Shown here piece by piece: positions 15,042 through 15,340 of a stretch of DNA of 64,000 nucleotides. How positions within the stretch are numbered: position 1 is the stretch's first letter; each line of letters opens with the position of its first letter. The DNA lies in the NCBI RefSeq assembly GCF_045037415.1, contig NZ_CP173438.1, one strand, 5' to 3'. This stretch comes from Escherichia coli. GTDB taxonomy: Bacteria; Pseudomonadota; Gammaproteobacteria; Enterobacterales; Enterobacteriaceae. Below the pieces are notes generated by a model. The model did not search any database. It was not told the DNA's origin and was given only the letters and a program-made list of their open reading frames with translations. The position numbers and the translations under genes were made by a program.

Positions 15042-15240
15042 TGTCAAGGGTGAAGGAAAGTGATTTTTTGGGGCATGCATGGGGCAAAAATATTTGTTGT
15101 GGGGCATTTTGGGGCATGATTGGAACACTTTGTTACATATGAACTTTGCCGATTTTTATATGACATGGAAATACAACGCTTTGATTCTTCTAAATAAAAA
15201 ACATGCTCTTGGGCGTTCTTTAGTGATTTTTAAAAATTCC

Positions 15241-15340
15241 GTATCACGCAGTTAAAGTGGCGGGCATACTCTTCAAGGCTGGTGATCCCCAACCGCACCC
15301 ATTTAGGATGCGACCATTGTGGCAAACCGATGTAAATCAT
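15241..15340 (-). pseudogene. yecE: yecE 5' fragment, about 33 codons, truncated at the prophage junction
   Basis: Minus strand encodes [32 protein letters not shown], then diverges into phage-side sequence with a stop after 3 more codons; start overlaps the yecD stop. Confidence 0.65.

Follow-up and report, generated by a model that had tools for sequence, protein, structure and literature searches.

The truncated yecE gene in the 64-kb stretch of Escherichia coli DNA analysed here (the window) almost certainly ends at the attR site of a lambda-like prophage of about 51 kb, which was inserted in yecE by means of a phiP27-type integrase. Insertion at this locus is already known biology, as a known phage integration site is used by a known integration module. 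What is now fixed is the exact right boundary (attR) of a 51-kb prophage common to 53 complete E. coli genomes. The recently characterised DRT10 module that is carried as cargo just inside this attachment site is useful for cataloguing prophage-borne defence systems.

The phage-host junction in yecE

A preliminary description of this DNA had proposed that an ORF next to yecD starts with the YecE N-terminus and then continues into phage sequence. Translation and alignment located exactly such an ORF, and the sequences on either side of the break are as follows.

1-15244, plus strand: visible part of the prophage, tail arm (ORF list, annotation and protein matches; 99.98% identical to Ecol_AZ146)
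15230-15340, minus strand: yecE 5' stub ORF (ORF list, alignment to the intact yecE of strain H105, and PGAP annotation in Ecol_AZ146)
15337-15903, minus strand: yecD, the host gene upstream of the yecE stub, intact (ORF translation, genome matches and annotation)

The stub ORF has 36 codons, made up of YecE codons 1-32 and four phage-derived codons (IRNF), and is closed by TAA. The stub that had been described as 33 codons long thus exists, with 32 YecE codons rather than 33 and with four more supplied by the phage. PGAP labels the same stub in Ecol_AZ146 "incomplete; missing C-terminus". The stub ORF and the yecD stop overlap by 4 bp, and beyond yecD the gene aspS is encoded on the plus strand from 16213. 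As the window begins inside the tape-measure gene, only the tail arm of the prophage is visible, which had also been recognised at the outset. This arm contains the C-terminus of the tape-measure protein (gpH'), gpM/L/K/I, a frameshifted gpJ, lom, the side tail fibre gene, a macro-domain gene, tfa, the DRT10 module and a dinI-like pseudogene.

When the segment 14700-15900 was compared by megablast with 5,426 complete E. coli genomes, essentially all of them gave a match. In most, the match starts at query base 546, which corresponds to 15245 in the window, and spans yecD and yecE (annotated as a DUF72 domain-containing protein). From 15245 rightwards the DNA is the 5' end of an intact 272-codon yecE in more than 5,400 E. 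coli genomes; left of 15245 it is prophage DNA, which showed no similarity to the intact-yecE strain H105 in pairwise alignment. H105, whose yecE retains all 272 codons, is identical to the window from 15245 rightwards save for one mismatch at 15248 (G in the window, A in H105), so that the codons read TGC and TGT, respectively, and specify Cys31 in both. Since 96 nt at the stub are identical to yecE, and the rest of the gene was found at the opposite prophage end in both near-identical genomes that were read that far, this is not a chance match.

The comparison with H105, an intact-yecE genome of the kind that the preliminary description had proposed to align, defined the attachment core at 15245-15255. 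In the phiP27 record, attL and attR are annotated as 11-bp features, and both correspond to the window sequence at these positions letter for letter. That record, like lambda, has attL on the int-proximal side, which makes the window junction attR. The core occurs as a single copy in the 64-kb window. Its sequence, and the junctions aligned with it, are given below in window orientation; the int-end junction was read in near-identical genomes that are described in the next section.

15245-15255: 11-bp att core CACGCAGTTAA, identical to attL and attR of phiP27 (AJ298298); attR (distal to int) by the lambda/phiP27 convention
15249-15255: CAGTTAA, putative 7-bp overlap region (allele patterns at both prophage ends)
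attB (H105): CCCTC CACACAGTTAA AGTGGCGGGCAT
Int-end junction: CCCTC CACACAGTTAA CATGACGGGTAT
Window junction: CGTAT CACGCAGTTAA AGTGGCGGGCAT

The core common to attB and both junctions is CAC(A/G)CAGTTAA, that is, 11 bp with one mismatch. At core position 4 the window junction (15248) has G, the phage allele, and the int-end junction has A, the host allele. Immediately after CAGTTAA the window continues with host sequence (AGTGG, from 15256) and the int end with phage sequence (CATGA). This split of alleles, together with the switched right flanks, points to strand exchange within CAGTTAA, at 15249-15255. Tyrosine recombinases of the lambda Int type make staggered cuts 6-8 bp apart within an overlap that is identical in attP and attB, and the overlap of lambda Int itself is 7 bp long. 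By analogy with the lambda Int mechanism we infer that CAGTTAA is the 7-bp overlap, and the cleavage positions are assigned on the same basis. The junction that had been placed at 15240-15246 is therefore real, but the core occupies 15245-15255 and the crossover would fall in 15249-15255, a few bases to the right. In attB a good inverted repeat (CCCTCCAC / GTGGCGGG) surrounds a 9-bp centre, and the corresponding repeat in attP is weaker; these repeats would have the layout of core-type binding sites.

On the phage side of the core, two further elements of an attachment site could be recognised.

15060-15244, plus strand: P arm (phage attachment-site arm) kept in attR (three-way alignment of the window, phiP27 and PhiR49_2)
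15069-15116, plus strand: four direct TGGGGCA repeats, candidate arm-type integrase sites (window motif count; conserved in phiP27)

The arm, of about 185 bp, aligns with the right end of phiP27, and the sequence further left is unrelated; similarity to phiP27 that is confined to the att-side block marks the integration module as a mosaic block. The repeats start at 15069, 15080, 15100 and 15110. TGGGGCA is found nine times on both strands of the 64-kb window, with four of these copies falling within 48 bp, and the int side has one exact and one degenerate (TGGGACA) copy at a distance of 65-85 bp from the core. The integrase (437 aa) matches PF12167 (Arm-DNA-bind_2, E 2.4e-23) over residues 7-70 and PF00589 (Phage_integrase, E 1.2e-17) over residues 202-395. 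With predicted arm-binding and catalytic domains, it has the make-up of a heterobivalent, lambda Int-like tyrosine recombinase. The presence of an Arm-DNA-bind_2 domain makes the TGGGGCA repeats plausible arm-type sites, and the four repeats probably bind the arm domain of the integrase. The int-xis stretch, which comprises the genes for the 437-aa integrase and the excisionase and was read in the sequence of relatives outside the window, has 94.9% DNA identity to L01/L02 of phiP27, and in the xis-int-att stretch the full prophage has 99.9% identity to PhiR49_2. Judged by these sequence identities, the lambda-like phage here has borrowed the phiP27 integration module.

The whole prophage in near-identical genomes

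The int end lies outside the window, and the full structure of the prophage was taken from near-identical genomes, not from the source assembly. The first 16.6 kb of the window are 99.98% identical to Ecol_AZ146, with three differences. Against p4A, p11A, FDAARGOS_1265 and several strains named O25b:H4-ST131 the identity is 100%, apart from one difference in length of 1 bp. At least 80% of these 16.6 kb is carried in one place by 53 of the 5,426 complete genomes. The far end of the prophage was read in two genomes, Ecol_AZ146 and p4A. In both, the rest of yecE is found about 51 kb away, adjoining an excisionase gene and a tyrosine integrase gene, where CACACAGTTAA is followed by yecE codons 33 onwards. 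In both genomes, outside the window, the core is thus duplicated and the element lies between the two halves of yecE. Ecol_AZ146 has one copy of the core per prophage end and none inside, and its core-to-core length is 51,058 bp. The remainder of yecE and the integrase, which the preliminary description had expected at the opposite prophage end, are accordingly located there, and its proposal of a prophage integrated within yecE is upheld by a lambda-like element of about 51 kb that runs from the stub to xis, int and the yecE remainder.

The annotation tables of Ecol_AZ146 and p4A show a lambdoid gene order. From the host side it begins with yecD, the yecE stub, the frameshifted DinI-like gene, SLATT and the reverse transcriptase gene, and continues with tfa, the macro-domain gene, the side tail fibre gene, Lom, gpJ (frameshifted) and the tail-tip genes gpI/K/L/M. 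The tape-measure gene, lambda-type tail and head genes and terminase come next, followed by the lysis cassette, pseudogenes, the genes for a DUF262 protein, a HEPN nuclease and a cytosine methyltransferase, and Q. Beyond Q are the replication genes, a LexA-family (cI-like) repressor gene and early genes, and the order closes with the excisionase, the 437-aa tyrosine integrase, a 256-aa DUF72 product (the yecE remainder) and yecN-cmoA-cmoB.

Since the window shows one junction only, and integration is not provable from the window alone, the same stub could in principle have arisen by a non-phage event (a deletion, an IS element or a genomic island) beside coincidental phage neighbours. However, the break falls exactly on the att core annotated for phiP27, and in the near-identical genomes the missing part of yecE adjoins a phiP27-type integrase at the other end, with the core duplicated. 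The far-end remainder, the duplicated core and the phiP27-type int-xis genes refute a truncation of this sort, which we regard as vanishingly improbable. The 51-kb insert could also be a tandem composite at yecE, made up of two elements such as a phage and a satellite or two phages, since O145:H28 is described as having tandem and nested integrations at att sites like that of yecE (PMC8112680). A sequence scan of Ecol_AZ146 found no third copy of CAC[A/G]CAGTTAA between the prophage ends, and int, the repressor region, the lysis cassette and the morphogenesis block each occur once in a single lambda-like gene order. With no internal att core, a composite element was rejected as extremely unlikely.

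Integration almost certainly proceeded as follows. A temperate lambda-like phage equipped with a phiP27-type module inserted in the chromosome by site-specific recombination; the module comprises attP, an excisionase and a tyrosine integrase that resembles lambda Int and has an arm-binding domain at its N-terminus. The phage core CACGCAGTTAA recombined with host attB CACACAGTTAA, which covers yecE codons 29-32, by exchange that is placed within the shared CAGTTAA. The gene was thereby split. Its 5' stub of 32 codons was joined to phage DNA at attR, the junction in the window, and its 3' remainder, now about 51 kb away, was joined at attL to int, at the 3' end of that gene. As relatives retain intact xis, int and cores at both ends, excision of the element should still be possible, whereas the gpJ frameshifts suggest that infectious particles may no longer be made.

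Cargo, decay and the fate of yecE

The preliminary description had left the cargo of the prophage as a question for its far end. The annotation of the near-identical full-length copies includes no stx gene, and the window itself contains a DRT10 defence module next to the junction.

12619-14673, minus strand: DRT10 (UG17-A type) module, between tfa and the dinI-like pseudogene (PADLOC and RNA folding)
14539-14673, minus strand: predicted 135-nt structured ncRNA of DRT10 (folding)
13967-14518, minus strand: SLATT gene of DRT10 (PADLOC RTasSLATT, E 2e-57)
12619-13989, minus strand: RT gene of DRT10 (PADLOC RT_UG17, E 8e-159, full length)

The pairing of a UG17 reverse transcriptase with a SLATT partner now goes by the name DRT10. 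Two preprints describe it as a defence system of three parts, in which an ncRNA of about 137-143 nt, located just upstream of SLATT, templates protein-primed tandem-repeat cDNA synthesis (PMC12632851; 10.64898/2026.04.29.721553). In the window the SLATT and RT genes overlap by 23 nt, and the 244 nt upstream of the annotated SLATT start have a fold that is more stable than those of shuffled sequences (z = -3.1). Within it, the predicted ncRNA would form a 135-nt basal stem with four stem-loops. The order of predicted ncRNA, SLATT and RT matches the published DRT10 architecture, as does the predicted fold. The ORF list gives SLATT a longer ORF that starts at 14671 and would cover the ncRNA, which makes 14518, the annotated start, the more likely one. 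A scan of the whole window with Rfam at gathering thresholds matched nothing at the junction and assigned the DRT10 ncRNA to no family, and a literature search returned no mention of the RT accession WP_029701056.

Shiga-toxin-converting phages carry stxA/stxB between Q and the lysis genes. The possibility that the prophage is of this kind had been raised in the preliminary description, and its integration module is indeed that of the Stx2e phage phiP27; moreover, Stx1a, Stx2a and Stx2d phages occupy yecE in STEC strains (PMC8112680). On the other hand, the full-length copies in Ecol_AZ146 and p4A, for which the annotation was consulted, carry between Q and holin, where Stx phages have stx, genes for a cytosine methyltransferase, a HEPN-like nuclease and a DUF262 protein as well as pseudogenes. 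The hosts were isolated from humans, in one case from blood, and several bear the name O25b:H4-ST131; they are not STEC. Stx cargo was rejected on the annotation of these near-identical genomes and is barely credible for the prophage described here.

Several other genes and RNAs were observed along the way. In Ecol_AZ146 the Q-to-lysis interval (L001 34551-37409) encodes a DNA cytosine methyltransferase, a HEPN-like nuclease of the MAE_28990 family and the DUF262 protein, a group that looks like a second defence or modification cargo. The macro-domain protein (so named by PGAP; phrog_2613, unknown function) is encoded at 11011-11913 on the plus strand, between stf and tfa, where its gene overlaps the stf stop; it has 300 aa, and its C-terminus contains GAHSHG/GAHTHT repeats like those of tail fibres. 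The gene could be a moron or serve in counter-defence related to ADP-ribose, and PADLOC gave no match for its product or for the integrase. A full-length Rfam match to IS009 (RF02111, 218 bits) lies at 12265-12463 on the plus strand, inside the tail fibre assembly gene tfa. The only other Rfam matches were to host RNAs that are ordinary for E. coli, namely the SraC/RyeA and SdsR/RyeB pair on opposite strands and a cspA-type thermoregulator 5' UTR (window 44870-45014 and 60502-60962).

Among the alternatives weighed, the one live question is whether the element is still an active phage. Genes similar to dinI are typically among the last genes before attR in lambdoid prophages, and the copy at this position is broken.

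14763-14982, minus strand: DinI-like gene, frameshifted into two short ORFs (PGAP in Ecol_AZ146)

An intact homologue is present in PhiR49_2 at 40476-40724. In the window the tail-tip gene gpJ (3697-7170, plus strand) falls into three ORFs. The window and Ecol_AZ146 have one frameshift in common, which lies within 4518-4665; the other is due to an extra T at 5097 in the window that is absent from Ecol_AZ146 and could be a sequencing error. The gpJ breaks in general could reflect real decay or homopolymer sequencing error, and together with several late-region pseudogenes they indicate that the element may be partly decayed. It is quite possible, if somewhat short of probable, that the prophage integrated as described and has since become an immobile remnant that yields no infectious virions, effectively a fixed island in an ST131 sublineage. 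Besides the disrupted gpJ, the pseudogenes (the dinI-like gene, a DNA methyltransferase, DUF6645 and DUF551) would fit such a remnant, as would the near invariance of the arm in 53 genomes, which suggests vertical inheritance. However, the other head, tail, lysis, replication, repressor, Q, xis and int genes are annotated as intact and both att cores are preserved; the gpJ frameshifts, moreover, could be long-read homopolymer errors, although one of them is common to independent assemblies.

For the host, the consequence of integration is the disruption of yecE (DUF72), which is split after codon 32. At the int end the frame is open from yecE back into phage DNA for 18 codons, up to a stop (...*HQRLIKISKLILNTRHVNCVEGNT...), and upstream of Val32 it contains no ATG, GTG or TTG. 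PGAP starts a 256-aa DUF72 product, annotated as complete, at an ATT codon that lies 13 codons before the yecE part and is preceded by an AGAGG motif. This start falls within the final codons of int, and the product is encoded in the same direction as int (Ecol_AZ146 int end, L003 3381-3430). The 13 phage-supplied codons in frame with yecE encode IKISKLILNTRHV, in which TRHVNCV resembles the displaced host ARHFNCV, and the yecE remainder and yecN are directly downstream of int in the same orientation. It is conceivable, if improbable, that integration remodels the YecE N-terminus and brings its expression under phage (int) transcriptional control. Since the remainder is without its first 32 residues, it was judged most likely non-functional. 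A simpler reading is that the codon similarity would reflect core-type integrase sites and that the truncated protein would be dead.

Frequency and known comparators

A 401-bp probe centred on attB was found uninterrupted in 4,903 of the 5,426 complete E. coli genomes, so that about 10% are without an uninterrupted copy. A 271-bp attR probe, which combines arm and stub, was covered to at least 80% in 325 of the 5,426 (6%), which thus have a junction of this type. Phages with Stx1a, Stx2a or Stx2d, and also non-Stx phages, are documented to integrate in yecE of O145:H28 (Nakamura et al. 2021, PMC8112680), and the same study reports copies of the yecE attB within other prophages. This documentation, together with the annotation of the same 11-bp att in phiP27, agrees with the initial characterisation of yecE as a recognised phage site.

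Among the closest known systems is the Stx2e phage phiP27 (AJ298298 / NC_003356), with which the prophage here shares the 11-bp core, int-xis at 94.9%, the arm of about 185 bp with its TGGGGCA repeats and the target yecE. Only the integration module is shared; the rest of the genome differs, and the right ends are unrelated left of about 15060. Unlike phiP27, the prophage here is annotated without stx, and its head and tail genes (gpJ, lom, stf, tfa) are of the lambda type. PhiR49_2 (PV340570, host ECOR13) resembles it in int-xis (99.9%), in the right end from the dinI-like gene to att (95%) and in its lambda-like order. It differs in length (41 kb versus 51 kb), in being without the DRT10 and macro-domain genes, in its intact dinI-like gene, and in J and tail genes that are only 77-91% identical.

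The yecE prophages of STEC O145:H28 (PMC8112680) use the same target gene, and by megablast strain 16003 of this serotype has the last ~40 bp of the phage arm and the stub in common with the window. For the Stx2a phages of O145:H28 a 21-bp att was defined and the cargo is Stx (PMC8112680), whereas the prophage here has an 11-bp core with one mismatch and no annotated stx. Phage lambda itself offers a heterobivalent tyrosine integrase, xis next to int, a short core and arm-type repeats on both sides, to which the putative 7-bp overlap can be added. Unlike lambda, which inserts at an intergenic attB between gal and bio, the element here targets yecE and has another core sequence and another arm-site consensus; its attachment site overlaps the 3' end of int, and its integration breaks a coding gene.
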